A DNA stretch of 36,320 bases from Proteromonas lacertae (taxonomy: Eukaryota), in NCBI GenBank assembly GCA_002245135.1, contig NGBS01000656.1, positions 1 through 36,320 of the forward strand. The letters run 5' to 3'. Position 1 is the first letter of the stretch; every line of letters begins with the position of its first letter. Below the pieces are notes generated by a model. The model searched no databases. It worked only from the letters and a program-made list of their open reading frames with translations, and was not told the DNA's origin. Shown one piece after another: positions 696 to 27,632 of the stretch. The position numbers and the translations under genes are program-made.

Positions 696-989
696 ATGCC
701 AAAAAGGTGGTAGAAGACATAGATGCGTTTATGGAAGAAGGGGTGGTTCATTTTGGGGTAAGTTAAAAAATTGGGGTTCCAAAGCATTTAATTGGGCAAA
801 GGATCATAAAATAGCATCCAAAATAGCTAGGGAATTAGGAAAGATAATATCGCAGATGGATTATCAACAATGGGATTTGGTCGTAGAAGACGTAGGTCAG
901 GAAGAGGTAGATTACCATTCAATGGAGGTGGGAGTAATCAACAAGCATTATTGAATGCATATTTAAAATCAAAGGTGGCTCGAATGTAA
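696..989 (+). CDS. Small basic/amphipathic virion core protein (adenovirus pVI/pVII-like character), two frameshifts
   Basis: Joined reading MPK/KGGRRHRCVYGRRGGSFWGKLKNWGSKAFNWAKDHKIASKIARELG/DNIADGLSTMGFGRRRRRSGRG...KVARM*. Both shifts fall at A runs. It parallels the motif in the 53-498 frame. Confidence 0.6.
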
Positions 990-1082
990 GCTTGACTTTT
1001 AATAATGCTAATAATACTTATATTATTATTATTTTCATTGTTTTTTTTGTTAATTTTATTTTTCATAACATAGAAATAAAAA

Positions 1083-1697: not shown

Positions 1698-1767
1698 TAT
1701 TAATAATACTTATATTACACATTATTATTATAATTAAATTGTTTATTTTATTTTCTATTAAGTTATT

Positions 1768-2832: not shown

Positions 2833-2985
2833 TAATATCATCTATAATATCAATAACGGCTATATTTCTAATAGTATTGTTTCTCTATTTTTTTATATTG
2901 TTTTATATATTTTATGGGTGTTAAACGAAAGCATAAGCAACAATCATCACCAAAATAAGAAGCAATTGATTTTGAGAATCCCTCT

Positions 2986-4286: not shown

Positions 4287-4341
<55 letters not shown>

Positions 4342-6651: not shown

Positions 6652-7618
6652 GTTGTAGTTAATTGATTTTTGTAATATTTGTTTTTGTAATTCTGGACTA
6701 TGGAATACTTCATTTGGGGTATATCCTTTAATTCCTGGTAATGGCTTGTTGTTATAGTCATCTATCACTTCCTGTATTATACTATCGAGTTTTAATTTAT
6801 AATTCATATCTGGTATAATATGCTTATCATTGTGATCAATATCTGCCATATATGTAGGTGCATCATATCCCAGATCCACCAAGTGTTTGTACAATAGTCT
6901 TTTTATCACACTCACTGATCTATCCAATAATGACTCTATTTTATGCTCTGAACCATCTTTTTGAAAATATTAAATTCCTTCAGCATCACATAACTTCTTG
7001 ATATTTGAAAAACTAGCATCAGCATCTGATAGGATACTTACCACATTTTTATGTGTTTTGTTTCCATAGGCATCTGTTTCATAATACCACTTCTGAAATG
7101 CATCCAATGTAATATCACCATATTTATTAGGCATAAATATTGCCCATACTTTTCTTGAATTCATTTCGATAAAATACAAATGTTCCATATTAGGTAAGAA
7201 AAACACAATATCCATTTGGAAGTACCCTGGCTTCTTGATAGTTGCGAATGGATTATTTTTTTTATATTTGAAATCGACAATTTGTTTTCCAGGTTGTCTC
7301 CTTAAGTATTCACGTACTACACATACTAGACAAATGTTGTGTCATTTTGATAAATTCATTTTCATTAAGGTAATAATATTTTTTATATAGTTCATCTAAG
7401 CGTGATCGATATTGGGCAATTTGGTTTGACATTTGGTCTTCATACGAAGCCTCTCTTGTTGGATGTGTAATATTCGGTGCTCCATGGTTAATATATGTTG
7501 CAAGTGATAAGTTACCATTTGTAGGTAACGGTTTGACAGGATATGGGTTCTGGTTGCTATATGAGCTGTATAAATGTGGATCGTAACTATTAGTGCTAAA
7601 CATATGGTCCAAAAACAA
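6565..7618 (-). pseudogene. Retroviral-type (rve, DDE) integrase of Polinton/virophage type, two frameshifts, probably 3'-truncated
   Basis: Three frames join as ...VVREYLRRQPGKQ...PGYFQMDIVFF...YFIEMNSRKVWA...ILSDADASF.../...LDRSVSVIKRLL...VIDDYNNKP...IKGYTPNEV...FEVGDLVR. The QMD, SD, YNN.....G.TP and F.VGD.VR motifs are typical of Polinton integrases. Confidence 0.85.
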
Positions 7619-7787
7619 AAAACAAAAGTAATAATGAAATTCATTTCATTATGATTATTATCTAAATTAATAGAGTTATATGTCTTTATAGCAACATTTA
7701 AAAAATATATATATATATATCCGTTTCATATATACATATAACATTTGTTCATCGTTCAACGTTATTTCCCTTTCAATTCACTTATTA

Positions 7788-8587
7788 TGAGCAACTGGAA
7801 GATACTATACAAAAACAGCTTCATTAATGATCCAAATCCGAGCATATATAAAATTTTATGTGAGAATTTTAAGACGATTGTAGAACATGAGAAAGATTTG
7901 CAACGTTATAGGTATATTATATTATTATATGTCTATAGCTGGAATGGTAACTTCAGTATAAGGCGTTTCACTACATGGTACAAAAGATTCACAGAAATTG
8001 AAAAGATTGATGCTCGACATGAAAGATTAAAAATGTCCAGAGTGTTGATGTCTGTCCTGCTATGTAATATCATGTATAAAGAGGATCTGGACAAAAGCAT
8101 CGTATATATTCATTTAATATATATTTCAATTTTGAATCAATAGTATGATCGTATGCTTGACCATGCAATGGAGGACATGGTGGAACTGACTTGTATGTAT
8201 ATCATACATTTCGGTGACAACGATTTAGCAAAATGCGAAAAAGAAGAAAACAAGAATTCGAAAGGAGATATAGTTTACAGAAATACTGCTGAAAGTATGG
8301 TAAGTAGTAAAGTCTCTGTAGCATCGTTGTTTGATAATCTGGATGATGATGATTATAATGATGATGATGACAACAACAAGTTGTTAAAGGTGGTATCGAC
8401 AAAAAGAAAGTGCAGTACATCTAAAACTCCAAGATTCAAAAGAAAGAAAATAAATCAAAAAAACATTTCAACCAAAAACCAAAAACAAGAAGATAGTACT
8501 ACAGAGGAAGATGATGATGATGATAACTTCTCACAATTTATAGTAGATGATGATGATGAGGAGCCAGAGTACCAAAATGATTATTAA
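7788..8587 (+). CDS. Hypothetical protein with acidic/basic C-terminal tail; predicted introns at 8102-8143 and possibly 7912-7938
   Basis: ORFs 7745-8143 and 8153-8587 are in frame and joined by a 42-nt GT...AG segment. A second in-frame 27-nt AT-rich GT...AG segment lies upstream. Confidence 0.6.
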
Positions 8588-8762
8588 TCTCTGGTCCTAA
8601 TTGGTTCAAATGATTGATTGTGTTTGTGTGGGAGTGTTGTTTTCATAATTTACATAATTAATTAGCATTATAACAAGTCTTATAAGAAATTTCAATAATA
8701 GAAAAATTGATGCGTTTCGAGATTTGACTTGAACTCCATTTTTTTGTTTTGTTTTTTATTAC

Positions 8763-8820
8763 ATAGGATGGTCACCATATGTTGCCATATCACACAGTAT
8801 GGTGGCCATCCTATCTATCT
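8763..8820. repeat. Terminal hairpin plus (CTAT)n, the putative right end of the virus-like element
   Basis: ATAGGATGGTCACCATA-18 nt-TATGGTGGCCATCCTAT (17-bp stem, one mismatch) followed by CTATCT. Confidence 0.65.
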
Positions 8821-9560: not shown

Positions 9561-9946
9561 TATTAAATAGCACACTGTTTATCCAAATTTAAAAATAATT
9601 GATTTTTATAATAATGTAGGCTTGATTCTAAGCTTGTAACTTTCTCAATCTTTATCTTTTGAAATACAATTGGCTATCATGCAAAATACACCACATGAAA
9701 ACACTTCAAACACAGAAAAAATACCAGAATCTCCTGCTGTCTCAAAACAAGAAAGGAGTGATTTAGAAACACCTACTGCATTAAACCCCCTTAGAATGGC
9801 AGGTTTATGTGCTATTGTAAAAAGTGTCTCAAAAGGAATTGGAGCTGGTGTTTGTATTATTCTTTCTATAATTATTTAGTAAAAGAGTTTATTAAAACCA
9901 TTTTGTTAAACCATTCTTTTAAAACCAATAATATTTCTTTAAAGCA

Positions 9947-10804
9947 ATGATATTAGTAAAATACATATTTTTTCTTTTTATAATTTCATTTACATATAAT
10001 AGAATTTATAATAAAAACATTTGTCCTATTGCTTATGAAGTACTAGCTACAGGTTCATCTTCTAATCATTTTAATCTACTTTTACTAATGTTATATAGAA
10101 TTTATGAAATTGAAAGCAATAAATGTTTGGTGATTTGGAATTTAGGACTTACATTTCAACAAAAAAATTGGTTATTAAATGCAGAAAAATATTTAAAAAA
10201 AATGAAAGGCGATATTCGTGTATATAATTTTGATTTTAATTACAGCAATTATCCTCCTCATTTTAATATAAATATAAAAGCTGGGTATTATGCATGGAAG
10301 CCTTATGCAGTGTATAATACTTATAAAATGTTTAAAAGAAATATTCTATGGTTGGATGCTGGATGCTTCATTAAAAGTAAATTAAATTATGAATATAATG
10401 AAATAAAGAATAAAAAAGTATGGTCAATTAGTCAAGCTTCAACTATAAAAAGATGGACTTACATTAATCTATTTCATATGCTAGATTCTGATGAAACTAT
10501 ATACAATAAGACTATGTGTGCTGGAGGTGTTATTGGGTTATATTATCCTTCATTATTAGTTAAACATATAATGGATTTATGGACTGCTTGCGCCTTACTA
10601 AAGAAATGCATATCACCTGATGGATCAAGTATTAAGAACCACAGATATGATCAAAGTATTATATCTATATTATTTTATCAGCATAATTTGAGTTGCGAAA
10701 AAATAGATCCTATAAATTTTGTTACTCATTTTGATTCGAAATACAAATCATATCATAATCATAAATATGAAAAATATTTAAAGAAAATTAAAGTTGATAA
10801 ATGA
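9947..10804 (+). CDS. DUF1647-like putative glycosyltransferase, type II membrane protein
   Basis: N-terminal signal anchor and motifs SSNHF, NLGL, YAWKP, LWLDAG, W..CAL...CI.P and NHRYDQS. Confidence 0.75.
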   Translation: MILVKYIFFLFIISFTYNRIYNKNICPIAYEVLATGSSSNHFNLLLLMLYRIYEIESNKCLVIWNLGLTFQQKNWLLNAEKYLKKMKGDIRVYNFDFNYSNYPPHFNINIKAGYYAWKPYAVYNTYKMFKRNILWLDAGCFIKSKLNYEYNEIKNKKVWSISQASTIKRWTYINLFHMLDSDETIYNKTMCAGGVIGLYYPSLLVKHIMDLWTACALLKKCISPDGSSIKNHRYDQSIISILFYQHNLSCEKIDPINFVTHFDSKYKSYHNHKYEKYLKKIKVDK

Positions 10805-10954
10805 ATTAATATTTCAAATATACAATAATAATTATCATTAAATGATGAAATTTCCAATACTATAATTCTGTTATATTCCTTACAATTTTCCACTCTAGTT
10901 TTTATGACTATTGGGGGATTGATATACATTAATTCCAATATATATTGTATATAT

Positions 10955-11147
10955 ATGGACTTAAGCCACATGTCACAAAGTCCTAACGAGTTTTCTAGGG
11001 GTTCATCCCTTTCTAGATTCACAATTGACTTTTACAGAGCTTTCATCGATTGCATCTATAAATCTCGTAAAGTCAACTGTGACTCTAGAAAGGGACGGAC
11101 TCCTAGAAAACTCGTTAGGACTCTGTGACATGTGGCCAAAGTCCCAT
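10955..11147. repeat. ~190-bp imperfect palindrome (left hairpin of element A)
   Basis: GTCCTAACGAGTTTTCTAGG...TTTCTAGA...TTGACTTT is mirrored by AAAGTCAA...TCTAGAAA...CCTAGAAAACTCGTTAGGAC, centred on CATCGATTGCATC. Confidence 0.95.
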
Positions 11148-11963
11148 CTTACTCAGTCCCAAGAGATTCTATTATCATCATCCTCCTTCCATATCATCGA
11201 TAGCAATCCAGACTCTATGAACATCTCCGGTATTGATCAATTTCCTTACCTTTGTAACTTCTTGTTTTACTTACTCACGTACTTACCATGGTAAGAGATC
11301 AACAGTCCATTTCATTAACAATATCAATATCAATACAATGGAGTCATCGATAAGGAGGACGTGGATAGATACGTGAAGGTTACCTGGAGATGTCTTCTTA
11401 GATTTACTAAGCTTTACAACTCACATAACGATCTTGAGAATTGCCTCAGACATGGGGAACTTAGCTACAGTCCTTGACTGACCTTATCATGAAAGATCGC
11501 GATGACTTACTAGCTTCTTGATATAGAAGTCCCAATGGTTGTTTGCTTGGAGCCGACATCGTTGACATTTATAGGAACTACTCCATCATCCGTACTAAGC
11601 TCTCTAAACTCCGTGAATACCGACTCCTGCAGCTCTATAATGATTTAGCCATTCCATTTTCTGAATCCTTTAACTACCTGGAGATGATCATTGATGATGC
11701 TGATGGCTTCCAGAGATCCCTGGACAATGCAGAATCCCTTATCGACTCCTTTTCTTATTATTGATAATAACATTTTCATAGTTATTTTGTCTTGTTTTGG
11801 GTTACAACTTCAAGGTCATCTTCTTGAAGTTAACTTCTTGGAGTTGACTTCTCGGTAGCTTCCATCTTATTCAGCTCTTTAAGTTAAAGGCCTTTGAACT
11901 CCTTGGTTTATTGCTATTAATCATCCTCATATCACATCATTGTAAAGACCGAAGTTGTAAGGC

Positions 11964-12681
11964 TTAACTAACAACTACGGGCGTTCCATTGCTTACCAAG
12001 GTAATGATCGTGACTATTGTGAAGAGGCCAATGAAGGTAACTACAATACTTCCGAGGAAGCAACACTATCTACAACAACACTTACTACAAGTCCAACTCC
12101 ACTTAGCAAAGTTGAAACAGAGAAGGAAGATACCGATGATTCCAATTGCCATCACGTTAGTCAGGAACATAAACATTAGCAGGTCTTTCTCGTATAAGTA
12201 ATTGATGGCATCTACGATCAGTCGGAGGATGATATTCATGTTGGGACTTGATATTGCTAGGTCAAAAGAATTTACTAACTAGCTGATGATGGATTGAATG
12301 TAGCTCCTTGACTTTACCTATCCTTCAGTACCTTGCCTATTGCTTATCTGGTTTTCACCTTCCTTGAGTTGATTGTAGTGATCTCCATCGACTTGTTCAT
12401 CATTGTCTTGATCATGATCCCAGCTCCTAGTTCTTATTGACTCCGATCATCTTAAATAGCTTTTGGAATCCACGCTTTACTCGATTGATGAACGTTTCCT
12501 AATGCACTTCCTCGGAGCTGATTACCTCGGTATTGTCTGGCTTTACTATCACCGATAAGTTCGTGTGTATGGGATAGTCCTTGAGTATAACTTCATCAAA
12601 AGCACCTTCCTGGGAGGCTTGATTAGCAAATTGATCCTCTTGGAATGATCTGTTGATCCCAGAGTTGATGAAGCAAGACAA
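11964..12681 (-). pseudogene. Degenerate element-borne membrane protein ORF (two hydrophobic segments flanking a Cys cluster); five in-frame TAG codons, one frameshift, no start codon
   Basis: Manual translation continues through the TAG codons: ...EEVH*ETFINRVKRGFQKLFKMIG...MNIILRLIVDAINYLYEKDLLMFMFLTNVMAIGIIGIFLLCFNFAKWSWTCSKCCCR*CCFLGSIVVTFIGLFTIVTIITLV... Confidence 0.5.
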
Positions 12682-12771
12682 AAAGATTGGCTTTTGTTAT
12701 TTAAAAGAAAAATACACAAAATAAAAAGAAATTCAAAAAAATATTTTCAGCCTTTTTGCTAAACCAGAATA

Positions 12772-14166
12772 ATGACTAATATTTATTCATATAAAACAGA
12801 AAGTATTCTTTTTATTATTTTTTTTATATTTGCATTTAATTCTATTAATAATAACCATAAAAAAGTACTAAATTTATGTAAAAGTATTGTTGGAAAAGTG
12901 AAATATAAAACTTCAAGACAGTCATGCAAATTAAACTGCAAAATAGAAACAAATTATTCATTTCCTAAATATACAAACGATTCTTGTTTTATAAAACATT
13001 TATATAAAATAAAACATGAAAAATATTATTCTCTATATAACCTCAATATATCCCATTATTCATATGAAAATAAGTTAATATATTCTGAATTTATAAACGT
13101 ATCTATAAAAAATATAGTATTAGAAAAATAGTTACTTTTACACTAATTATATGGCAATTCTCTTTTACTATTCAATAAAAGATTTTGTTATAAACTTTAC
13201 TGTTATTAACAATTCCCTTAATAGAGTAATAGATGATGATCATTTAAATGTAAATATATATTTATATGATGCTTTATCAAGATATCGGTTTTCAAGACAA
13301 ATGGTATATACTAAAAATTATTTAATTGATCTTTCTAAAAAATATGAACTATATGAGATGATGAAATATCATACTATTGGAATTAATTCACCTTTAAATT
13401 ATAGAGCATTAATCAACGGAAAAAATTCAGTATCATTATTTAAGTGGTATAAGCTTAATAACTATACAATTGCTTCGTTACCAGGTTATTATGATTTAAA
13501 TTTAAACTTGTGTGGTAGTAGCAATAAAAAATATGTAGATTATAATGTTCAATTATTCAAAAGCTGGAGTGATAGATATTTATTTGGAAGTTCAAAAAGG
13601 TGTTTAGGTAATAAGCATATACATGAGCATCAATTACAATTTTTAGAATTACTATATTCTTCATATAACAACAAAAATCCAATTTTTTCATTTACCACAT
13701 TTATGGAATCACATGATTCATCATTTTTATCATTATTAAGAATGGATAAAGATTTTGCTAATCATTTATCTAAATTAGAAAAGAATTATATATTAAATAA
13801 AACTGTAACAATAATAATGAGTGATCATGGAATTCATTATGGAAAATATTATGATACTTTAGTATTGCGTTTATATTATTTTCTATTAGTTTGGAAAACA
13901 TGATAGAGCACTTCCGCTGTTTATAATAGTATAATACTACCATTTAATTGTAGATTTTCCCAAAATGGTATATCAATAAGAAAAAAAACTTCGACAATAA
14001 TTTAAGAACAAATCAAAATATATTCGTAACCGCATATGAAATACATAATATGTTAGTAGATATTATTAAAAGTAAGATTATTATCAAAGATAGCCTGCTA
14101 AACAAGTTAGACTACAGAAGAAATTGTAGTATGTATAAAATTATAGGAGGATGTTATTGCTTGTAG
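12772..14166 (+). CDS. DUF229-like (alkaline phosphatase/sulfatase superfamily) membrane-anchored protein; one frameshift near 13128 and short introns
   Basis: Motifs DALSR..F.R.M..T, YHTIG.NS..N, RCLG, ESHD, MSDHG.HYG, then after an intron (about 13862-13889) HDRALPLF. N-terminal signal anchor. The 3' end is approximate. Confidence 0.75.
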
Positions 14167-14666
14167 AATTATTAAGTAATTTTTATGAAAAATAAACTAA
14201 CTGAATTAACTACTCATTGATTTTCTAAGCCCGATTCATCGATATCTGTTGGTCTTCTAAGACCAGTGTTGTCGTTTTCAGCTTAAGAGTGTGAATACTT
14301 ACGAGGCATTATAATACCTGATTGTCATTGTTGGGAGGTAGATATGATCAAGATCCTCCGATGGAATAATGATGTTGCATAGGCTGACTCCTTCCATGCT
14401 CTTGAACTTTTTATTGGACATATTCTTTATCTAGATGACTTACAAAGACATTGAAATAAACCTTCAGAAGCCTCCGGAGAATGCTTATGATGACTTTCAA
14501 GGACCATTGAGAAATCCAGAACTAGCTAGAACCTCTCGAAGTCCCAGTTTATTCAGTTCCATTGAAAGCCTTTATAAGGTCACCAGCGTGATTAGATTCA
14601 TCATACTGAGATAACCAAGACTTGCAGATATCTTCATAGGAATCTTCATAGGAAATACCTTATGTA

Positions 14667-14701
14667 TATGGGACTAAGACAGTGGGCCAAAGTCCCATAT
14701 A
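14667..14701. repeat. Collapsed terminal hairpin at the right end of element A
   Basis: ATATGGGACT-AAGACAGTGGGCCAA-AGTCCCATAT. Confidence 0.8.
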
Positions 14702-14707
14702 TATACT

Positions 14708-15108
14708 ATATATATTCACATTGCCTGTAGCTATTCCAGTACTTAATGATGTTCTCATCATTATATAAATATAGCTCTGCTTTTATTAGTTTAGCATTTT
14801 CTTGTTTAGAAGAAGCAAAGAAGAATATTAATTTTGTATTGTAAGTATGCTTATTTCTGAGAAATTCTTTAATAAGTGATTCACTGTTATCTGAACAGTC
14901 GCTATATGTTATTACTCCTTTGTTTATAAAAGGCAACAGTGTTATCAAAGAGTTAGACAAACTAAATTCTTCATTTTTTACTCTCATAAAACTATACACA
15001 TTGTTAGAACAAGTAATTACAAAAGATTTAAGGAAGTATACTATAATTACAAATAATAAATATATAAATAATGCTAAGTTATATAAATCAAATATATACT
15101 AATAACAT
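14708..15108 (-). pseudogene. CgtA-like (beta-1,4-N-acetylgalactosaminyltransferase family) glycosyltransferase, 5' part, interrupted by element A; the probable 3' part is at about 10759-10945
   Basis: FMRVKNEEFSLSNSLITLLPFINKGVITYSDCSDNSESLIKEF matches the CgtA-family N-terminal motif (RVKNE..L..SL..ILP.I..GVI.Y.DC.D.S...I.EF). A hydrophobic anchor lies upstream. Confidence 0.65.
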
Positions 15109-15136
15109 TTCTATATATTTTAACACCTTTGATTGT

Positions 15137-15971
15137 ATGAAACTCATAATTATATTCTGTTATTTGATTATAGTAATGTTATTATTCGTATTATTAAAAA
15201 TGTATTTATCACCTCATATTTTAATTATTATACCATCAGATTTATATTATTTAGATTTGATTAGAAATTTTTATTTAACAAATATTATAAAATACAGATT
15301 ATCTGATAAATTTAAAGTAGTGGCATATACATATAAAATGTATGTTATGTGTAAAGAATATAAAATCCCAGTAGATAAAATGGATAATCAAATTAATGAA
15401 AATAACGATAGTAGTTTATATAATAACTTCCCCAAATTTTATAAAAAAAACAAGATTAAAAAATCCAATAATATTAAAATATTTAAAGTTATATAGAAAT
15501 ATTCTCTTTATGGATGCAGATTTATTATTTCCATTCTGATTCAGATTTGATGATGTCTTATGACAATTTAAAATGCAACATTTTAAACTACGGATTTGTT
15601 CTTTTAAAAAGATCAAAAAGAACTATCAAATATATAAAAGAACTAATTGCTATAGAAAAGAATTGTAAAATATATCAATATTCTAATTTAGAATGTTTAA
15701 ATAAATGCAATATAAAATATGTTGAAAATATATCCTTATTCTATGTAATTTACTTTATATATTCTTAATTGTTTAGTCATACATTAATAAAATTGAATCA
15801 ATAGGAAAAGAAAATCACTTATTGGCAAAACATTTAAACATCAGTCATATTTCAGATTTTGAAGAAAAACTAATAATTTTAGAAAATCTATATATTAAAA
15901 ATTTTAATAAGAAATATTCATGCGTTATTCCAGATAACTATTTTCAGAAGAATTATAAATTGTGTAGATAG
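15137..15971 (+). CDS. Nucleotide-diphospho-sugar transferase-like glycosyltransferase (frameshifted or pseudogene)
   Basis: Signal anchor, NILFMDADLLF (DxD motif, in a shifted frame near 15498-15530), LNYGFVLLK...T and an intron near 15745-15776. Boundaries are approximate. Confidence 0.55.
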
Positions 15972-16394
15972 AATTATTTATTTGAACATATATCAAATTC
16001 ATTATGCTTACTAAATATTTATTCTTTTGTATCTTTTGATTTGTAATAGTTAATTTAGTAGATATTATCTGTATACTTATTCATTCTATATAACAATTAA
16101 TCAAATGTTGATAGAGTTATACAAAATTATAAAGTGTATGTATAATCGTGAATTGTAATATTATTGAATGACACTTTCTTTAATGATGATGATAGTATAA
16201 TAGTAGAGCAATTATTGACATATAAGAGCTTTAATTTATTAATTAATTAATAGAATATTATACTATTTCCTTTTGAATTGTTGCTATTCTCGGTAATATT
16301 TTTCTAAAATGTCTATCATATCTTTCTATAAGCTTTACCAAAATAAGATAGCTTAGCAATAAAACTTGTCTTCTAAAGTTATTATAATGTAACT

Positions 16395-16555
16395 ACGTGA
16401 TTCCTCTTGCTAGATTCTTTGAAATGCTGGTGACCTTGTTAAGGCTTTCAATGGAATAGTAGAACCCGATCATAGAACCTGGACATTACAATTGTTAACT
16501 TTGTTACAAAATGGTAATACCGGGAGGTTCTAGCTAGTTGTGGTATTTCTCAAAG
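16395..16555 (-). mobile_element. Orphan inverted fragment of the hairpin-element subterminal region
   Basis: The reverse complement reads GAGAAATACCACAACTAGCTAGAACCTCC...AAGTTAACAATTGTAA...GAAAGCCTTAACAAGGTCACCAGC, matching about 24056-24217 and 14508-14590. Confidence 0.8.
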
Positions 16556-16599
16556 ACATTTGTTGTGCTCCGTTACATTGACCATAAAATAAAAAAATT

Positions 16600-16791
16600 A
16601 TGTCAGACGGACCTATTCCTCAAAGAACTTTTTCAGGTGGTATAACTACACAGTTAGATGCTCAGCATCCTATATATAAACAGCAGCCTTCTCAGACAGA
16701 ACAAGAGACCCAAGCTGATCAAGAATTATATTCTACATTGAATAAGTTACCGCCAGAAGCTAAATCTATGCTAAACAGTATCAATATATAG
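16600..16791 (+). CDS. Short hypothetical ORF that ends at the element B junction; possible continuation at 24611-24768
   Basis: ATG after an A-rich leader. The TAG stop is formed at the element boundary. Confidence 0.4.
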   Translation: MSDGPIPQRTFSGGITTQLDAQHPIYKQQPSQTEQETQADQELYSTLNKLPPEAKSMLNSINI

Positions 16792-17158
16792 TATATAAAT
16801 GGGACCCTGGGACATTGTCACAGAGTCCTAACGAGTTTTCTAGGGGTCCGTCCCTTTCTAGATTCAGAGTTGACTTTTACGGGGCCTTCATCGATTGCAT
16901 CGATGAAGCTCCCGTAAAGGTCAACTCTGAATCTAGAAGGGGACGGACTCCTAGAACACTCGTTAGAACTCTGTGACAATGTCCCATAGTCCCATTTACG
17001 TAAGGTTCCTACGGGATTCCTCCTAACGGGGTCTACTGCCTACGGAGTCTACTTCCCTACGGGGACTGCTGTAAGCTATTTCTATACCTATCTATGAGAC
17101 GATCTCCTACGGGGACTCCTGGAAGCTATCTAGAAGTGTTGGTTACCTCGAGGTGATG
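16790..17158. repeat. Left TIR of element B: ~200-bp hairpin (16796-16998) plus CCTACGG(G) direct repeats
   Basis: Direct comparison of the arms and with the right TIR. Confidence 0.95.
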
Positions 17159-17586
17159 GTAATGAAGAAGCAGTGATCTCTTTCGGAGTATGGGTAAGAA
17201 CGTCTCAGAGGAAGCTTCCTTACCAAGGACGATGTTGCGGAGCAATATCGGACTTGGATAGGAAGGTTCTGTCGTAGACGTTCTTGTCCATGCCCGGAAG
17301 AAGAACTGCTTTCTTCATTACCAGGATCATTGAGAAGGTACTTTCATTTGATCATCATCCAGGGATGTTGAATCTCTTGGAGTTGTTGCTGCCCAACAAA
17401 GCAAGGTAAACTATTTGCACCATGGTTGGGCAGCTCCGAAGGTGGTCACTGACTATAGTTATCCTCTTGCTTAGACTTCCTCTATCTATCTATTACTTTC
17501 CCATAACTTTAGTCTCAGTATCGGCTTCTCCTGTAATGTTTTTGATCGATCCCAAGACAGAACCTTATCGATAAAGCTTACTATCA

Positions 17587-20058
17587 TTAGTGATTGAAGG
17601 ATGTGCAAATGAAAGTAGAAGGAGACGCTATACTACCACTTTGGAAGTCTTCATAGGTGAAGTTAAACTTATCGATACCATTGAAAGTAAGATACCACCA
17701 AACGCCTGATGATGGTTCAGAGCCTAGCTTTCTTACCCAGCAGGTGGTTTTGTTATATAGCTGGAAGCTCTTAAGGAATGTCACCAGTTCTCTTTTCGTT
17801 GCGTTGGTTATTCTAATCCCACCACGTGTAGGGTCATGATTACCTTCAAGATAAAAGGACCGACCAGCATCTATAGTAAGTTCAATTCTATTAGGGTAAG
17901 CCGTAAGATATCCAGTAGGTTTATCCTGATATGCTGCAAACTCCAACCATATTACCTTAGCTATTACCACGTCTTGACTATTAAGGATGTAGTTCCACAT
18001 TGAAGTCAAGGTCTCATTCATCTGTTTAGCTACCGTGGTAATCTCCGATGATCCATCTCCTTGAGATGCCAGGCTTTCTACTGATGTCTTTAACTCGGTT
18101 GACTTCTTCTGGACGTCCTGAACATTGCTATCGACTGAGTTGATCTTACTTAATTGAGCTGCACTGGTAAAGTTGTTTACTTGAGTTACGGCCAGGTTGT
18201 TGAGGTTGTTGACTTTGCCTTGGACTTCAATGACTCTTGTCTGGCAATCTCCTATCTTTGAATGTACTTCATTGACCTTGGTTAATTGAGCTGGTGAACA
18301 GAAGCTATTGACATTCCCAGTATTGAATCCATCGATCTTGGTTCTGATAGCAGCTGCATTGTTGATAGCTGTATCGATCAGTCCTTTACGGGTATTGTTA
18401 AAGAAGCCATCCAAGTTCCTTCGGAGGTTGTCTTCTTCAGTCCTTCTAGCCACGCCACAGGTTGCATTCACATCGTTGATACTTAGAGAATCCACCTTGA
18501 TCTTGATCGCATCGGTGTTGGCCTTAGTTGTATCAATGAAGTTACCTCGGCCTTCAGTACAGAACTGGTTAATACTCTCCTTGTTGAGGTCATGGACACG
18601 TTCATAACACTTATCTATCTTCTCCGATCGATCCGAAGTACAGAAGTGCTTCACTGCTGTGTTAGTCTCATCGATATCAGCACTTCTCGGGATAGTACAA
18701 AACTCCTTGATCGCGTTGTCAGCATCGTCGATCTCTTTAGTTCTCTTATCGGTAATGAATCCTTTGATCAGTTCCTCAATGCTCTTGACAATGATAAGTC
18801 TCTCCAAGGAGCAGTAGTTGTTAATGTCTTCGATGGCTATGCCGGTGATCAGCTCATGGACTTTATCAATCTTCTCCTTCTGTGAGCTACTACAATATTG
18901 GTTGATATCATCGATATCTATCTTGCTTACAATATCCTTGGTCTTGTCAATAGCGGTAGCTCTCTCCTCAGTGCAGAAGGTATTCGTCTTGTCAGCTTCT
19001 CCATTCAACCCGGCGATCTCTTCCTCCATAGCATTCATCTGGTTCTTGAAGTCCTTGTTGTAACCATTGGCAATCTCAATCTCTTGTAAGACCTCCTTGA
19101 ACTTAATCATGTTATTGTTAATCACGGTGTTGATTGCTATGTACTCCTCGTAGTTGTTCTTCATCTTGATCAACTCCTCGGAGGTTACTTTGATCTGCTT
19201 CTCTAAGTCAGTGAGCTTCGTAAGGCTCTTATCATCCACCGTAGTGATGTACTTGATCATATCGTAGACGTTAACATCCCCGATGTTGAGACTCTCGCAT
19301 AATGACTTCAACAAGGTACTGAGACGATCCAGTTTCTCATCCTCTGATGCTTTCAATTGATCGATTGAAGTGTTGGTGGATTCAAGGGCATTGCTTACAT
19401 CCTCCATGCTCTTATACAACTCTAGTAATTGCTTCTCCGTGTACTGCTTAAGTTCATTGCTGCAAGTAGCAATATTGCTCAAGGTTGTAATAGTCGTATC
19501 TCCGAAGTCTTCAGGGATCTTGTTGTTAAGCAAAGTACCTAGGTTCTTGACTTCCTGGAGCTTCTGATCGATACCTTCAATCTTATCAGTCTCATCTAGC
19601 ACTTCCTTTAAGGTCGATTGAATAGCTTTATGATCTGGTTGTAAGGTACCTTGAAGGTACTCATGGAGTTGATGATGATCAGTCTCTAGCTTAGCCAACT
19701 TCGTAGATGACTCCTCCGAGTGATCATCCAACTTTCTCTTGATAGCTGTTGTGGATGAGGTTACTTCTTCTTGTTGCTTCTGATTGATACTGACGGGTGT
19801 TCCTCGGAGGACTTCTTGGATAGTGCTTACCAATGGAGGATTGATCTTATCATAGTCTATCACGGCCTTGAGTTCACCAGAACCCAAAGCCTTTTGAATC
19901 ACTTCCTGGGAATCTTGGAACAACACGTCCTTATCATACTTAACAACGACCTTCCCATCTATCTTTTGCTTCACATCGTAAGTAGTCTTGTCGATAGTAT
20001 TAAGTAACCTTAACATTTCCTCATCGTTCTCCCGTAAGTTGTTCCCGATGTTGAACAT
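17587..20058 (-). CDS. 823-aa coiled-coil, fibre-like protein with about 11 F/Y-C-T/S-x-x-R/Q-x-x-x-I-D repeats and a globular C-terminal domain
   Basis: Intact ORF with no evident intron, ending TAA TGA TAG TAA. Heptad-rich N-terminal half, repeats such as FCTEERATAIDKT, FCTSDRSEKIDKC and FCSPAQLTKVNEV, and an aromatic/Gly-rich last ~125 aa. Confidence 0.85.
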   Translation of the reverse strand: MFNIGNNLRENDEEMLRLLNTIDKTTYDVKQKIDGKVVVKYDKDVLFQDSQEVIQKALGSGELKAVIDYDKINPPLVSTIQEVLRGTPVSINQKQQEEVTSSTTAIKRKLDDHSEESSTKLAKLETDHHQLHEYLQGTLQPDHKAIQSTLKEVLDETDKIEGIDQKLQEVKNLGTLLNNKIPEDFGDTTITTLSNIATCSNELKQYTEKQLLELYKSMEDVSNALESTNTSIDQLKASEDEKLDRLSTLLKSLCESLNIGDVNVYDMIKYITTVDDKSLTKLTDLEKQIKVTSEELIKMKNNYEEYIAINTVINNNMIKFKEVLQEIEIANGYNKDFKNQMNAMEEEIAGLNGEADKTNTFCTEERATAIDKTKDIVSKIDIDDINQYCSSSQKEKIDKVHELITGIAIEDINNYCSLERLIIVKSIEELIKGFITDKRTKEIDDADNAIKEFCTIPRSADIDETNTAVKHFCTSDRSEKIDKCYERVHDLNKESINQFCTEGRGNFIDTTKANTDAIKIKVDSLSINDVNATCGVARRTEEDNLRRNLDGFFNNTRKGLIDTAINNAAAIRTKIDGFNTGNVNSFCSPAQLTKVNEVHSKIGDCQTRVIEVQGKVNNLNNLAVTQVNNFTSAAQLSKINSVDSNVQDVQKKSTELKTSVESLASQGDGSSEITTVAKQMNETLTSMWNYILNSQDVVIAKVIWLEFAAYQDKPTGYLTAYPNRIELTIDAGRSFYLEGNHDPTRGGIRITNATKRELVTFLKSFQLYNKTTCWVRKLGSEPSSGVWWYLTFNGIDKFNFTYEDFQSGSIASPSTFICTSFNH

Positions 20059-21218
20059 TGCCTAGGAAATGATTCCAGATCAGAACTTTACTTATAGATC
20101 CAGGAGCTACCTCCCGAGATGTACCTTGCTTACTCTATCCACACGATGAACTTCAACTCCTTATGATTACTAGCTGATGGATGTAGATGACTTTATCGGT
20201 CTTTGTAATGAGTTGCGTGATCTGTATGCTGTGAACTTCATAGTCTCGATCATCATCTACCATCTTAACTTACAATGCTTCTATTCCGATAAGACTTATA
20301 CGATAGTCAGAAGCCTCCCTTTGAAGTTCAACTACTCTCCGTAGACTTCACTTGCACCTTTGACTTCCAAGGATCTACTAATCGTCTCTCTATTCCAGAT
20401 GCTCCTTTACCTTCTTGGACTTCTCGGACGTGGCAGGCATTACCTATGAATTACTTTCTCTTCACTCTTGGTTCTAGCAGTCTATGATCACTGCTATAGT
20501 AAGTACCTTGAGACTGACTGCTGAAGTTAGAGTTGATCTCATCCTTAACATCTCTTGAAGAACTACTTGTGATCTTTACCGATACCTCTCTCTTGAACTG
20601 ATGGTAACCCCTCAAGTGACAATTCCTTCTAGTTCTAGTTCATCAAAGTTGTTGATCCTCAGTAATGTACTAGCCTTCAGTCTGATCACTACTAGTCTCG
20701 GTATTGTTATTGAAGTCAGTGTCTTTACCTATCTACTGATAATCACCTTACGATCGATATCTTATAGACTCTTGGACATCTATGCCAGTGTTGCTACTTG
20801 AGGAGTATACGATATCTCTGGTCTACTTACTTACTTACTAGTAATGATTCCTAGCATCACAAGTAAGGACTACTCAGGTAAAGGATTATCGATCACACTT
20901 CCTATAGTCTGCAATTGTAACTCTTTATGTACCTACAACTACTTCATGATCTTCAGAGTCATTGATCCAAGGTTGTTATCTCAGGGTTGTTGATGTCCTT
21001 ACTATCATTGACTTATCCGAGACTCCTTAAGTTTATTGAATTGATTACTTACCATGTCCTTGAGTTGCTCATCTCCGTAAGGTTCCTTGAATTGATTATT
21101 TCTATTGTCCTCGGTCATACCCATGGTAACATTTTACTAAGTACCAACAATGTTAATCACGTTCCTTATCAGGAGATGCGTTTACTACTACTACTACTAC
21201 TACTACTACTTGTGGAAG

Positions 21219-22007
21219 TTATGATGACTTTGCCTGGTAAGGAGTTGCTTCAGAAGCTAGCTTTAGATGCTTCGCTGGAGGATCACTTGAAGCACCTAGC
21301 GATGGTAGTGAGGGTGTTGCTATCGATCTCTTCTTCGGAGGATTACTAAGCTGTTTTTGTCTCCTCATTGATTCTATCCTGAGTCGGAGATGATCTTCAT
21401 ATTGTCTTAAGCGATGATACAGACTCAAGAGACAGCACATCGGAAGTGACTTTACCTTTGGATCTACGTGAAAGTTGATGTGACCATCTTTGATAGATAA
21501 AACTATCTTGGCCTGGCAAGACTTCTCTTTGAGGTGAACAGCATCACATGGAAATGAAATAATCTTATCGAACATCCCATCATGGTCGATTAGATCATTG
21601 TTGTCCTTGGTTGTCTTAAGAATCTCATGTATACTGTGTTGCATAAGCTGATTAATTATATCCCTTGTTTTATCACTGGAGTTGATGGAGATTCCTGGTT
21701 GTTGATTCTTAGTAAGTTTCCCAGATCTACATCTTGGACAACATCGATAGTAGTCTCCATTGGGCTTTAACATCATCGATGAAGCGAAGTGCATATGGCA
21801 TCTACTGCAGGACATAGTCTTGGCTATGAGTTCACCGTTCTCTTCCAAGGCTTTACGTTCCTCATGGCATCGGGCTATTGTCTTCTGCTTTGCCTTTCGT
21901 AAGAGAGCTCTACAAGAACTACAACAGCTGTATGCTCTTCCATCAGCTTCAGATTGGAACTCCTTCTTACATCGACTACATTTGACGATGGATTGCATGG
22001 TTACCAA
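21219..22007 (-). CDS. Protein with two CxxC...CxxCR zinc-finger repeats
   Basis: CSRCKKEF...YSCCSSCR and CSRCHMHF...YRCCPRCR, separated by a basic helix. Confidence 0.75.
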   Translation of the reverse strand: MVTMQSIVKCSRCKKEFQSEADGRAYSCCSSCRALLRKAKQKTIARCHEERKALEENGELIAKTMSCSRCHMHFASSMMLKPNGDYYRCCPRCRSGKLTKNQQPGISINSSDKTRDIINQLMQHSIHEILKTTKDNNDLIDHDGMFDKIISFPCDAVHLKEKSCQAKIVLSIKDGHINFHVDPKVKSLPMCCLLSLYHRLRQYEDHLRLRIESMRRQKQLSNPPKKRSIATPSLPSLGASSDPPAKHLKLASEATPYQAKSS

Positions 22008-22555
22008 TTAAGTATAAAAAAATAACTAGAAATATTTTAATGCCTTGAGTGACTGTAATAATTGACTTGTTACTAAATATTGATCTCATGGTTATTAGAT
22101 ACTTGTTTATTAGCTTTACTTCTATGAGTTCTTATTCATATCTAGGAATGATGATTAGTAGATAGTCTGTAACTGGTTACTACATATTGATCACTTAGAT
22201 AAGCTATTGGAATTTAGCAACTAAGTCCAGGATCTATTTTCTATGTCCCTATTTTTAAACCTTCCTTACGATGTCCTTAAGTCCGGTCAGTTCAATTTTT
22301 CTTGGCCTTATCAGAGTTGTGAATGCACCTCCAACTCCTAGGCTTCTTGTAGTAGGGGTCACTCAATGCTTCCTAAGCTCCTGCTGTTGATCTCATTCTA
22401 GTGTTAGGGTATCTGGTACTGTACTTTATAGTGAACTGTTGATTACAGATTCATCTCTATTCAATTTTTCTTTAGAATTTGGATCTTAGATGTTGCCTGT
22501 GATCTCCTGAGTTGATGAGGCAAGGCTATGTAGGAGGTGGTTCAGATATAAACAG

Positions 22556-22628
22556 TAGCTGTACTGGGGTTCGAACCCGGAGGGGATGGGATGTTGGTAC
22601 CTTGTCTGCCCACTAGGGCATCTTGACC
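22556..22628 (-). ncRNA. tRNA-like sequence / Pol III A-box plus B-box (not a foldable canonical tRNA)
   Basis: The minus strand reads GGTCAAGATGCCCTAGTGG...CCGGGTTCGAACCCCAG with tRNA-like spacing. Acceptor and anticodon stems do not pair well. Confidence 0.3.
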
Positions 22629-22879
22629 TTACTTATGGATTGCTGATCCTAGTATATGTATTGTTCAGCTACAGTATTTAGTGAATAGATTCAGAATGAT
22701 TCCTATTCAATCTCCATTGGACAGATGATGGGGAATTGACCTTAAGAAAATGCTCATTAGCTTACCTCCAGTAACATCTCTAACAAGTGCTCAGGTAAGT
22801 TCCTACTTATCCTAAGCTTCCCAATCACGGTATCCACGTTTCTACGATTGCTTAGATGATGATGCTGTCCTCGGGAATG

Positions 22880-24090
22880 AACTTTACCTTCAGGAATAAA
22901 TAAACTAAACTGGTATGTAAGGAGCTTCCTAGTAGATGACTTACAAGGCTAATGGAACATACCTACAGAACCCTCCTGAGATTGTTTATCACGATCTTCA
23001 AGGCCTTTGAGAAATTCAGAACTAGCTGGAGCATCTTGGATTCAAGTCTTAGAAGGGCAATGAAACTTACCTAGGCAATGATCCTGTTCCTTGGCTTTGT
23101 AATGCAGTCTCTTGATGGAAGTTCCATGACTGTGTCAGGAGGTTCCTCCTTGAGTTACAGCTCAAGGAGGAACATCCCGTCCTTGCTATGATAGATGATA
23201 GTTGAATGTTACCTAGTTGATTAATAAGGACGATAAGACTTACCTTTATAAGGCTCCCAAGATTGATAACAATGATCTTCAAGGACCCTTGAGAAATTGA
23301 AGCCTAACTGGAGTGGTAACAAAGTTGTTGATTGCTTAAAGAGGTTCTGATAATGGTCCTTTAACTGGATGAAGATCTCCTGGTCTTGTTATTGCTCAAA
23401 GTGTAGTACCTCCCCTGATACGATCACCATGCATGACTACGTCCGAGAGAACTCCTCCTTACGGCTATGCCTTCAGGAGGACTTCTCTCGTCCTTGTCAT
23501 CATGGTGATCTCCTCGGTGAGCTCCTGGACAATGTAATTAAACTTTACCTAGAAGAGTTATAAGGACAATGAAGCATACCTAGGCAATGATCCCATGGAT
23601 GTTCCTTGGCTTTGTAATGAAGTCTCTCTTGATGGAAGTTCCATGGCTTTGTCGGGAGGTTCCTCCTTGAGCTGTAACTCAAGGAGGAACATTCCTTCCT
23701 TGATAGGATAGATGATAGTTAAACTTACCTAGGAGAGTTATAAAGCCATTGTAACTTACCTCTAGGAAGCTCCCGAGAATGCTTAATTATGATCTTCAAG
23801 GCCCATCCTGAAGCGTTGCTTCGTAATGAAAGCTGATAAAGCTTAATAGAAGTACCATCAAGTCGCCTTCCCAGATACGTCCAGCCGTGCATGACTGCGT
23901 CAGGGAATCTCCCATCGTGGGAGATTCCTTCCTTGCCAACACGGCTGTACTTCTCGGGAAGGTCGTGGATGAACTTATCTAGGAGAGTTATAAGGATGAT
24001 AAAACATACCTTCAGAAGCCTTCCGAGATTGCTAATCATTATCTTCAATCACCCTTGAGAAATCCACAACTAGCTAGAACCTCCAGGAGT
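22880..24090. repeat. Degenerate tandem repeat array (~500-bp period with shorter shared modules) containing small hairpins
   Basis: About 23055-23230 resembles 23565-23735; 23410-23470 resembles 23868-23960; (A)CTTACCT and ATCTTCAAG...GAGAAAT modules recur. Confidence 0.85.
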
Positions 24091-24158
24091 TACCATTTGG
24101 TAACTTGTTACCAATTGGTAACTAGTTAACAATTGGTAACAAGTTAACAATTGTAAAC
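24089..24158. repeat. Four tandem 18-bp palindromic units (consensus GTTACCAATTGGTAAC-NN)
   Basis: GTTACCATTTGGTAAC-TT-GTTACCAATTGGTAAC-TA-GTTAACAATTGGTAAC-AA-GTTAACAATTGTAAAC. Confidence 0.9.
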
Positions 24159-24248
24159 TCCCGGTTCCCCAGTTGGTTTCCACGATTCAATTAAAAGCCC
24201 TTACAAGGTCACCAGCGTAGCAAGGAGAGTCAAGAGCGTGATTAGATT

Positions 24249-24608
24249 CATCACCTCGAGGTGACCAACACTTCTAGATAGCTTCCAGGAGTCCCCGTAG
24301 GAGATCGTCTCATAGATAGGTATAGAAATAGCTTACAGCAGTCCCCGTAGGGAAGTAGACTCCGTAGGCAGTAGACCCCGTTAGGAGGAATCCCGTAGGA
24401 ACCTTACGTAAATGGGACCCTGGGACATTGTCACAGAGTTCTAACGAGTGTTCTAGGAGTCCGTCCCCTTCTAGATTCAGAGTTGACCTTTACGGGAGCT
24501 TCATCGATGCAAGGCCCCGTAAAAGTCAACTCTGAATCTAGAAAGGGACGGACCCTAGAAAACTCGTTAGGACTCTGGCATAATGTGCCAGAGTCCCATT
24601 TATATACT
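24249..24608. repeat. Right TIR of element B including the hairpin at 24409-24602
   Basis: Reverse complement of the left TIR, with an 8-nt deletion at the hairpin apex and a remodelled outer module. Confidence 0.95.
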
Positions 24609-24902
24609 ATATATAAAAAGTGTTATAAAAGAAAATGAATGTTCAAACTCGTTTGACATTTTAAAACCAAAAATCAAATTTACTCAATATATTGTGATGT
24701 TTGTGATTTATTACAAGATTATATTTCCTTTGTTTTTGTTTATTTTATTTCTGTGGTTGTTTGTTTAAGAATAAGTGATGTAAATTTCATTATTTTGATT
24801 TTGTAGTGAAAAACCCCACTTACCAACTCTTGCAATATTGCTTCTTCAACAAATGTTTCTTTTCCTTCCTTAGCATTAAAATCAATACGCCTGACTTTAA
24901 CT

Positions 24903-27632
24903 CTGGGTTGAATAATAAAGGGACAGGGCAGTGGCGGGACAAGGGCATGTCCCGGGCAAAAATTGAAAGGGGCGTCCTTTATACTATCTAAAAATAGAAA
25001 AGGGTACAATTTGCCCTTTTCAATTATTTTATTTATATTTTTATATTTTGTGCGATTTTAGGGATATTAAACGCTATAAAAATATTTATTCTTTTCATAA
25101 TTATGTATTATTATCTTATAACAATAACAAACAATAATATTTCATTATAATAATAGCCTTAAAAGTAAGGGCTTTGAGATCCTTCATCACTAGAACTTTC
25201 ATTTTCATCACTAGAACTTTCATCTTTATCACTAGAATTTTCATCACTTAAACCTTCATCGCTAGAACTACCAGAACTTTCATCTTCATCACCAGAACAT
25301 TGATAATCTAAAGTGTCATATGCTATATTGTTATCAATTTCATTCAGCACATCTAAATTATATTCTTCTTCACTAATATCATTATCATCTTCATTTCTAT
25401 CTTTTTCTTTGTTTTTTTCTTTTAATAAATCATATTTTATTCTTAAAATATTATTTATAGTATTAAGCTGTAATTTATTTCTAATATGATTATGAACTAT
25501 TCCCTCAATACTAAATGAACGTTCAATAAATGAGCTTGTGACAGGAATAGTTGAAAGAATATCATATAGCTTCTTAACATTTGGGTAAAAAACTCCATAC
25601 ATATTGTACCATATATTAGTTGATATCTTTTCGAAAATATATCTGAAGGGCACTTTTTGGAGTATGGTTTTCTTCTTTCAAAATGATATATCTCATTTAA
25701 TGCTTTCTGATTTAAAATAGGGCTGAATTTAGATAATATATATCTTTATATATTATCCTTCTCCATGTCTGAAAATTTATGTTTACTGTTTATGTCTAAA
25801 AATTCATATAGAGCTAAAATGCTGTAGTTTGCATGTCTAGTCTCTTTTTTTATAATGTCTTTAATAAGTTCTTTTTCACTTGATGACCTTTTCATTAACT
25901 TTCTTTTAATTTTGGTCAATATTCTGAAACCATCATTTAATGTAGATGAATCTTTGCATAATAAGTGTATATTTGTGGAAATATATTTTGCAATCTTGTA
26001 GCATTCTTTAATTTCTGGTATATCTTCTTCCTTTAATAATTTTATCTGTAATAAAATTTCTTTATTGAGTAATATTTTTCTAAATACATCGCTATAGCTT
26101 GACCATCTCGTATCACAACCCTTGCGTATTTGGATATTTTTTTGTATAATTGAATATATAGTTTCTCTAATCTTTTGATTATTATTTAACTTATGAATAA
26201 TGTCATTACACATGACTATCACTTTTTTGTATTTCTCTATTTCGAATACTTTTTTACTGATTAAGTTTAGGATGTGTGCTAAACATCCAAACTTTAATAC
26301 AGGTCTATTTATTTTTTTCTCTAAAATACTACTTATCTTTTTCATGGTGTAGTTGTTATCACTACTCACAGCAACAATGTTTTTAATATCTAGTTTATAC
26401 TTCACTAATGTTTGAATTATTAATTCCACTATATTTTCTGATGTTTCTCGTTTATGTAAATAAATGGATTCCAAAAACGAAATATCACTGCTTTTCTTTA
26501 TTGCCAAATTAATAACGTTTTCATTGGTTACTGATTTCCAAGCGTCCACAATTATACATATTTTACTGTTATCTACAATTTCCTTTACTATTCTTTCTGC
26601 TTCTTCGTTCATTGATGCTTTTATTTTGTTTATTGTTATTGACTTTGTAGTTGGATTTAATGCATATATTAGATTTTTAAAGGATTTAGATTGTATGGTT
26701 CTGAAAGCTAAGTTATTTTTTATAAGATATTTGGTCACCATTAAGTTTATTGCACGTTCATCATATCTCAATTCTGTAAGTTTTGATTGGATTAGCTTTT
26801 CACTACATCTAATTTAATAAATATAATAAATATATTTATACTTTTTGTAATGACGTTTCAAATTAGTGCAATGAGCAATAATCATTGCCTTGCACCTTCT
26901 GCATTGAATTCTGTTGTATTTTTCAAGGGGTTTCTTTAACACCACATCTTCATTAAAGTATCTATACACAGCATCTCTCGTTTTACCCATATACAATTGA
27001 AATGCAAAATGATAGCTCGAAATTCTCAAACCATTTTCTAAGTATTCAAATAATTGCTTGAAATACATTAAGTAGTATGCAAAATATACTAAATAGTAAT
27101 TTTGAAATAGTTTTTCTATTAGTTTATGAAATATATTATGTTATTATCATAACAAGTACTATTGATTATCAATTAACTGAAAATACCCATTCTATAGCTA
27201 TACTTCTTAATTATCTATATGATTATGTATAATATACAAAATTATTTATTATATAAATTACATTTATGTTCAGTGACGTCAATCACCTTGAAATGTACAT
27301 AATGTATATATATGCATATCAGAATATGATATACAGTATGTATATTCTATATAATTAGTATATATGCATAAACATATGATATTATATAATCATAAGAAAA
27401 GTAGATGACTATTATGTTATAATACACAATAATATATCCTTTTTAACATATGTTAGTATATCTAGATGATAATATGGAAAAGTTATAACAAAAAATCAGA
27501 AAAAATATACTACAGCATAACACATGCTAATATTACTATGCCCGAGCAGTAAGGGGCAGGCTTCTTTTCAGCTGAAAAAAAAGGGGCAAAAATAGGGCAA
27601 AATTCGAAAAGGACGCCCTTTATCGAACCCAG
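24903..27632 (-). mobile_element. hAT-superfamily DNA transposon, full length
   Basis: Termini CTGGGTT...AACCCAG, exact 8-bp TSD CTTTAACT (24895-24902 and 27633-27640), subterminal AAGGGC/AAGGGGC repeats and an internal transposase. Confidence 0.95.
25159..26990 (-). CDS. hAT transposase (BED zinc finger, DDE core, dimerisation domain), with short introns
   Basis: CRRC...NLKRH (BED), DAW, SDN, CLAHILNL, TRWSS and IPVTSSFIERSFS. Exons correspond to ORFs 26814-27068, 25746-26771 and 25159-25653. Confidence 0.92.

Follow-up and report, generated by a model that had tools for sequence, protein, structure and literature searches.

We report that a 36,320-nucleotide (nt) stretch of contig NGBS01000656.1 of Proteromonas lacertae (hereafter, the window) carries a real, young-looking inserted DNA element of 7.8 kb, named B, with decayed relatives, namely a unit named A and a short third remnant (Table 1). 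As B combines palindromic ends that are intact and sharp, duplicated ATATAT flanks and no recognisable enzyme, it is best regarded as non-autonomous and mobilised in trans, in agreement with what a previous sequence-only reading of the window had claimed. B is likely a non-autonomous member, or a satellite, of the class that comprises Polintons, Polinton-like viruses (PLVs) as well as virophages. The explanation we favour, with a probability of roughly 45%, is that B is a non-autonomous Polinton/PLV-class element, inserted by the integrase of a helper and likely replicated from its own hairpins. Folded back, the palindromes of B would serve as primers of DNA synthesis, and a retroviral-type (rve) integrase of the helper, which would generate a 6-bp duplication and prefer ATATAT, would insert the opened ends with their 6-nt tip starting with AG. 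The host RNA polymerase II would transcribe the cargo, which comprises a protein predicted to be trimeric and fibre-like, a second one that probably binds zinc, and what is likely a spliced hairpin RNA.

The terminal sequence said to be common to A and B was ascertained: the 12-mer GTATATAWATGG is found without mismatch four times in the 36,320 bases, once per claimed end, and six times with one mismatch allowed (0.97 expected; six or more in none of 100 shuffles). Each terminal inverted repeat (TIR) of B opens with an imperfect palindrome of about 200 nt (z −21.0 on the left and −16.8 on the right; none of 200 shuffles as stable), and the two TIRs differ at 17 columns, i.e. eight substitutions (five within the first 31 nt) and nine gap columns. 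The tips of B are AG..CT, and each TIR begins with six unpaired bases. Tips of the AG..CT type followed by a short simple repeat occur at three of the four ends of A and B, the left end of A beginning instead with TG. The hexamer ATATAT, which is found at 63 of 15,370 host-like positions, adjoins all four junctions, and is likely a preferred target, even if these junctions represent two or three events. Both elements had been described as sitting in (AT)n runs; AT is indeed present at every junction, but the runs comprise 3–4 units per side and can be read as a target duplication of 6–8 bp. In the case of B, the flank overlap is compatible with a duplication of 2, 4 or 6 bp, 6 bp being the maximum. 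Since the left and right AT runs are equally long in both A and B, a 6-bp duplication would explain the flanks more easily than a 2-bp one.

The same flanks bear on an appreciably less probable explanation, which is that B is a foldback-type non-autonomous cut-and-paste transposon (resembling Tc1/mariner, PHIS/ISL2EU or Mutator-like elements, MULEs) that has long structured TIRs, targets AT microsatellites and captures genes. The long TIRs with internal tandem repeats are in line with it, and so is a 2-bp TA or AT duplication, which is compatible with A as well as B and would account for the AT preference; furthermore, A brackets an intron-bearing host-type gene in the manner of Pack-type elements. 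However, a 2-bp duplication would require that both insertions occurred at the exact middle of equal AT runs, and this explanation accounts neither for the 200-nt palindrome in each TIR nor for the two large orphan open reading frames (ORFs) of B. MULEs typically generate duplications of 8–10 bp; the flanks of B allow at most 6 bp, which does not suit a MULE-type duplication of 8–9 bp, and those of A allow 8 bp. The published values are TA for the ITm elements, none or 1–4 bp for PHIS and 4–10 bp for MULE/Foldback elements (PMC10045372).

Palindromes are a known class of artefact of assembly or amplification: in a fold-back chimera, one arm is a copy of the other. Such an origin is extremely improbable here, in view of the following lines of evidence. 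First, three homologous palindromes lie at three separate places. Second, the two arms of the left end of B are 91% identical, whereas the inner arms of the opposite ends of B are 98% identical. Third, seven mismatches between outer and inner arms recur at both ends of B, and one of these is also present in A. Fourth, the flanks of B are duplicated. The sequence-only reading had named a fold-back artefact among the findings that would overturn it, and the recurrence of the arm mismatches at both ends of B suffices, from the bases alone, to dismiss that objection. Moreover, the palindromes appear to be maintained, as suggested by the paired changes and by a perfect 11-bp stem at the tip of the right end of B. 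The arms of the A hairpin (none of 200 shuffles as stable) are 84–89% identical to those of B, and three columns are altered on both arms of A together; RNAalifold, run on the three large hairpins, shows changes affecting both partners in 3 of 87 pairs, three sequences being too few for statistics. The claim of homologous hairpins of about 200 bp thus stands for the left end of A and for both ends of B, but not for the right end of A, which has one small hairpin of about 40 nt.

Because each arm bears a small palindrome at its base, the small units of one end are direct repeats. This nested palindrome accounts for a pattern of the stem bases that could otherwise be read as flip/flop, a reading that we rejected. 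Imperfect terminal palindromes with nested arms are typical of the ends of parvoviruses and adeno-associated viruses, which B also resembles by the short repeats just inside. Unlike them, B has no Rep/NS1 or capsid match, its two ends have the same orientation and its flanks are duplicated. The two hairpins of B agree in orientation at the seven informative columns, with no flip/flop, which also speaks against a linear replicon whose ends are covalently closed and which a tyrosine recombinase or telomere resolvase would resolve and insert, with the TA-rich tip as crossover core. The tips do hold (TA)n matching the target, and the CryptonS elements of stramenopiles have TATGG termini and 5–6-bp direct repeats; but Cryptons are described as lacking TIRs (PMC3212892), those of B are long, and no recombinase was found in the 24 frames searched (see below). 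We regard this explanation as rather improbable.

As claimed previously, neither A nor B encodes a transposase, recombinase, Rep or polymerase that Pfam can detect: no enzyme of mobility or replication was found in the two ORFs of B, nor in any of the 24 stop-read-through frames of the non-ORF parts. Intron-aware gene models, in nine region/strand runs, yielded nothing longer than 123 amino acids (aa) and no enzyme. No tRNA was detected, and neither Rfam nor a motif scan found a hammerhead; the 11 Rfam matches are all to microRNA-precursor models and stay under the gathering scores, so that they denote plain hairpins. In viral and metagenome contigs, no stretch matched exact 19/20-mers taken from the hairpin, and the TIR had no blastn match among phages.

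These searches also concern the idea, to which we attach little weight, that B was mobilised by a Penelope-like retroelement, the element end having been copied in inverted form as its left repeat. Penelope-like elements show a (TA)n preference, frequent inverted flanking copies, retained introns, a possible coiled-coil ORF1 and the ability to move intron-bearing host genes in trans (PMC8557442). B resembles them by its (TA)n target, inverted flanking repeats, retained introns and coiled-coil ORF; in addition, the right region is what the three copies have in common, and the left, inverted one differs in length (about 200 nt in A and 369 nt in B). Against this idea, no reverse transcriptase or GIY-YIG endonuclease was matched in the Pfam searches of A and B (a result compatible with a non-autonomous unit), no hammerhead was found, the ends are precise and symmetric, and no tandem partial copies occur. 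All four ends stop at the same base. The comparison of inverted or tandem pseudo-long terminal repeats for variable length covered two left ends. Finally, the direction of the genes and intron-like units is away from the shared right end, contrary to 5′-truncation.

Concerning the cargo, the start of the 823-aa ORF is preceded by a 30-nt GT..AG unit, and its Cys-bearing motif occurs eight times (shuffle mean 0.03, maximum 2 in 5,000). Three copies of its last 277 aa were modelled as a parallel coiled coil, with a score of 0.57 against 0.00 for the best of three controls. The mark set for this score is reached by 21 of 30 solved pairs and by none of 23 single chains; this prediction lies outside the calibration of the tool, which may also pass coiled coils that it has memorised. 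With a run agreement of at least 54% and a pLDDT of at least 47, the fold is uncertain, and we regard the C-terminal 277 aa as a predicted homotrimeric coiled coil. None of the 7,996 scored candidates of near length reached E 0.001 as a homologue of the 823-aa protein, for which there was no usable Atlas hit and no viral locus. Its two fold models (mean pLDDT 49.8 and 46.4) are of low confidence and had no Foldseek match at E 0.001; their best Z values, against helical bundles (13.7) and for the head (6.6), both lie in the common range. The four CXXC pairs of the 259-aa ORF likely form two zinc sites. Its single match among 1.84 billion proteins was rejected, the score being summed over 11 repeats of an unrelated repetitive protein, and its best Atlas score, 0.84, is a lead only. 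A (TAC)9 microsatellite (21183–21210) lies within B, just past the stop of this CXXC gene.

The right subterminal array of B (22750–24250) has 12 AGGTA sites on the minus strand against one on the plus strand (1.6 expected). Its four exact 31-nt GT..CTAG units (shuffle mean 0.0015; being repeats, they are not independent) run straight on, in three cases, into another GT-starting segment, and four strong hairpins occur in the array (z −5.4 to −8.4). On the minus strand, the 31-nt units are constant and the GT-starting hairpin segments variable, giving a constant-repeat, variable-hairpin array. We read it as a putative spliced non-coding hairpin transcript, the alternative being protein-binding DNA repeats. 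A palindrome reminiscent of the B box of RNA polymerase III lies at 22575–22590; ARAGORN and Rfam found no tRNA, and its fold is not significant (z −0.95).

The Polinton/PLV assignment of B draws support from the AG..CT tips, the compatible 6-bp duplication, a precedent in Halocafeteria seosinensis and a neighbouring element of similar end design. In H. seosinensis, virophage subtypes 1, 2, 5 and 6 and PLV subtype 4 carry palindromes within their TIRs, next to the duplication. These palindromes have been linked to RVE integrases and to replication without the protein-primed DNA polymerase (pPolB), hairpin priming being proposed, and fragmented elements lacking most core genes are reported, some of which keep TIRs and duplications (bioRxiv 10.64898/2026.07.28.741278). 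Like them, B has palindromes in long TIRs beside target duplications and clusters with other mobile elements. Consequently, the earlier statement that no known family fits fully was too strong, TIR palindromes beside duplications and gene-poor remnants being already known from this protist. Unlike the H. seosinensis elements (about 24 kb), B measures 7.8 kb, lacks genes for a capsid, an ATPase, a protease, an integrase and replication, and combines intron-like units with ATATAT flanks. As regards its derivation from such viruses, no homologue of the cargo was found, and the low-confidence fold models have unremarkable matches.

With Polintons/Mavericks (PMC8097293, PMC4196379), B shares TIRs within the 100–1000-bp range (369 and 360 nt), AG..CT tips with a short simple repeat (three of the four ends of A and B start with AG) and a compatible 6-bp duplication, which fits both A and B, as do 2 and 4 bp; vertebrate Mavericks have 6-bp end motifs starting with AG and 6-bp duplications (PMC8097293). 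B differs by its half size, its long terminal palindromes and the lack of matches to pPolB, rve integrase, ATPase, protease or capsid. Since A and B have no match to a core-gene family, B is not an autonomous Polinton member. Transpovirons are also of about 7 kb, with TIRs of 380–520 nt and a helicase as core gene (PMC7031253), and they share with B a zinc-finger-type protein, hairpins near genes and, presumably, helper dependence; but no ORF or frame of B matches a helicase, and B stands in a nuclear genome, with a GC content above that of the host, spliceosomal-type units and, in this comparison, no giant-virus link. In all, B resembles the end module of the palindrome-ended PLV/virophage class and fails as an autonomous Polinton, a transpoviron, a Crypton or a Penelope-like element. 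In the literature searched, which left Repbase and Dfam aside, no paper turned up on an element that lacks enzymes and combines this cargo with nested palindromes of 200 nt.

Several observations weigh against this assignment. First, no master copy or helper with these tips turned up in the viral and metagenome contigs searched by exact 19/20-mers. Second, ATATAT is present at all four junctions, whereas the EMALEs (endogenous mavirus-like elements) of Cafeteria integrate without sequence specificity and mostly have 3–5-bp duplications (PMC8547959). Third, the length of the duplication is ambiguous (2, 4 or 6 bp). Fourth, intron-like units are unusual for this virus class, the endogenous members of which are treated as intron-free (PMC10120064). 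Fifth, the palindrome reported in Halocafeteria measures 52 nt (subtype 5), against the nested palindrome of about 200 nt found here. Sixth, the predicted trimeric stalk would suit a virion fibre, but also a retroelement ORF1. Seventh, the neighbouring element, the sole one of its kind in the window, has no significant end match to A or B and no protein match, its integrase is broken and it is flanked by a sequence other than ATATAT.

A bolder version, which we consider unlikely, is that B is an intact satellite replicon of nuclear PLVs, i.e. a nuclear counterpart of the transpovirons. It would be propagated as a hairpin-ended linear DNA and inserted at ATATAT by a helper integrase, bringing its own trimeric fibre for helper particles and a spliced hairpin-RNA array for the host, with interiors swapped between family ends. 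How PLVs and virophages replicate without pPolB is an open question, for which the authors of the Halocafeteria preprint suggest hairpin priming, asking that it be tested. B, as a young, enzyme-free element with maintained 200-nt palindromes, would be a clean natural substrate for such a test, and it shows what these ends look like where searches for capsid genes would miss the element. Should a helper with the same tips exist, B would represent a satellite class for nuclear protist viruses, possibly with an integrase having a sequence preference. Should the master copy encode an ordinary transposase, the finding would reduce to an unusual foldback family.

In the best explanation, A and the remnant at 16426–16553 are older, decayed relatives of B. 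The remnant had escaped the sequence-only reading. The right part of A (14427–14656) matches B (23975–24305) in three pieces with 76–88% identity, which upholds the claimed homology of the right subterminal regions. The interiors do differ, as had been noticed: the best blastn match of A-left to B has E 0.03 over 25 nt, nhmmer found no match of the A-left interior to B, and the scores of all eight local alignments fell within the range of 30 block shuffles. Nevertheless, the left 1.7 kb of A have the trinucleotide composition of B (r 0.86–0.91), whereas the middle 1.5 kb (21.5% GC) correlate with adjacent host DNA (r 0.52–0.53) and hardly with B (r 0.03–0.16). This middle carries a DUF229 gene (Pfam, E 6e-23 and 5.5e-4 for its two pieces), which would be cargo that A captured or, alternatively, host DNA flanked by two half-elements. 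A 47-nt AT-rich match of the middle to 15727–15770 was dropped, having no protein-level support.

A, on which the shuttling of variable cargo inferred by the sequence-only reading mainly rests, may be two half-elements around host DNA. Its ends shared with B are as claimed, but its unity is put in question by the host-like, DUF229-bearing middle and by the presence of one full hairpin only. The flanks of A, matching over up to 8 bp (duplications of 2, 4, 6 and 8 bp all fit), would favour one insertion with a captured gene. Conversely, a target preference can yield matching flanks, the remnant at 16426–16553 shows that fragments occur, and a CgtA-family gene is cut at the right end of A without a detectable continuation on the left (none of three frames); hence, CgtA can fix neither the unity of A nor the duplication length. 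At the right end of A, the large palindrome was likely deleted between its two small-hairpin units, as their arrangement suggests. The cut CgtA ORF belongs to a cluster of glycosyltransferase-like and DUF229 genes, some of them decayed (9932–16400).

Table 1. Positions of elements A and B, their parts and neighbouring features in the window
Feature	Position	Strand	Remarks
Neighbouring Polinton/PLV-like element	1–8820		runs off the window; 2 kb left of A
Broken, truncated rve-like DDE integrase of the neighbouring element	6565–7341	−	
Putative end of the neighbouring element	8760–8820	−	terminal hairpin of ~58 nt (8760–8817), z −4.9; 6-nt overhang starting AG
Left flank of A	10938–10945		AT ×4; candidate target duplication (2, 4, 6 or 8 bp fit)
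Element A, as claimed	10946–14707		
Left end of A	10946–11144	+	starts TG, then imperfect palindrome of ~190 nt; z −16.2
Left interior of A	11145–12690		40% GC, element-type composition; no long ORF or Pfam family
DUF229-family gene	12700–14200	+	host-like, AT-rich; two intron-like gaps (28 and 25 nt, by eye)
Right subterminal region of A	14201–14656		one 31-nt GT..AG unit, minus strand
Right end of A	14657–14707		single small terminal hairpin of ~40 nt, ending CT; z −2.6
Right flank of A	14708–14715		AT ×4; adjoins the CgtA-family ORF
CgtA-family glycosyltransferase ORF	14709–15098	−	cut by the right end of A
Third family remnant	16426–16553	−	inverted piece of the right subterminal region, without terminus
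Left flank of B	16784–16789		ATATAT; candidate 6-bp target duplication
Element B	16790–24608		7.8 kb
Left TIR of B	16790–17158	+	369 nt; six unpaired terminal bases starting AG, then palindrome, then tandem repeats of ~16 nt
Left palindrome of B	16796–16998		each arm with a small palindrome nested at its base
Internal hairpin of B	17177–17305		just inside the left TIR; z −8.4
Orphan 823-aa ORF	17587–20058	−	eight short Cys-bearing motifs; small C-terminal alpha/beta domain
Orphan 259-aa ORF	21219–21998	−	four CXXC pairs
Right subterminal array	22750–24248	−	segments with hairpins, in alternation with four exact intron-like units (31 nt, GT..CTAG)
Right TIR of B	24249–24608	−	360 nt; palindrome 24409–24602; ends in CT
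Right flank of B	24609–24614		ATATAT

The neighbouring element shows that the Polinton/PLV class is present in the window, and does not identify the helper. Its terminal hairpin begins 6 nt inside the putative AG end, in the same layout as B. Its D-D-E-type ORF, the motifs of which we take to be Polinton-like, has two relatives 55–56% identical. Matches of these integrase relatives to rve are weak (E 0.088, 2 of 6 aligned rows), and rva_4 is matched with E 0.0032 in 1 of 6 rows; no locus in viral or metagenome contigs was confirmed for them, and the PDB gave no relevant match. The neighbouring element also contains small basic ORFs rich in Gly-Arg runs and a 1230-aa orphan ORF (2959–6651).

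The host-like parts of the window have 24–25% GC and use the standard code; the window contains genes of the DDB1/CPSF_A, CgtA and DUF229 families and a hAT transposase, with intron-like gaps of 25–30 nt, as judged by eye. Low GC and short introns recall the Blastocystis group of gut protists, which has 30-nt introns and low-GC lineages (PMC12129017), but other short-intron protists fit as well. The search for host genes yielded no match at E 1e-30. Directly left of B lies a short ORF with 37% GC (16600–16789), which may belong either to the host DNA or to the remnant element; B may have inserted in an intron of about 29 nt of this ORF. The region 27840–34582 contains two orphan ORFs of P-loop-like type (659 and 390 aa) and a third ORF, of 693 aa, with 96-nt repeats; the family matches are weak. 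About 290 bases from the right end of B, a hAT transposon (24900–27625) matches Dimer_Tnp_hAT (E 4e-8) and DUF659 (E 2e-12), and has short inverted ends recognised by eye.

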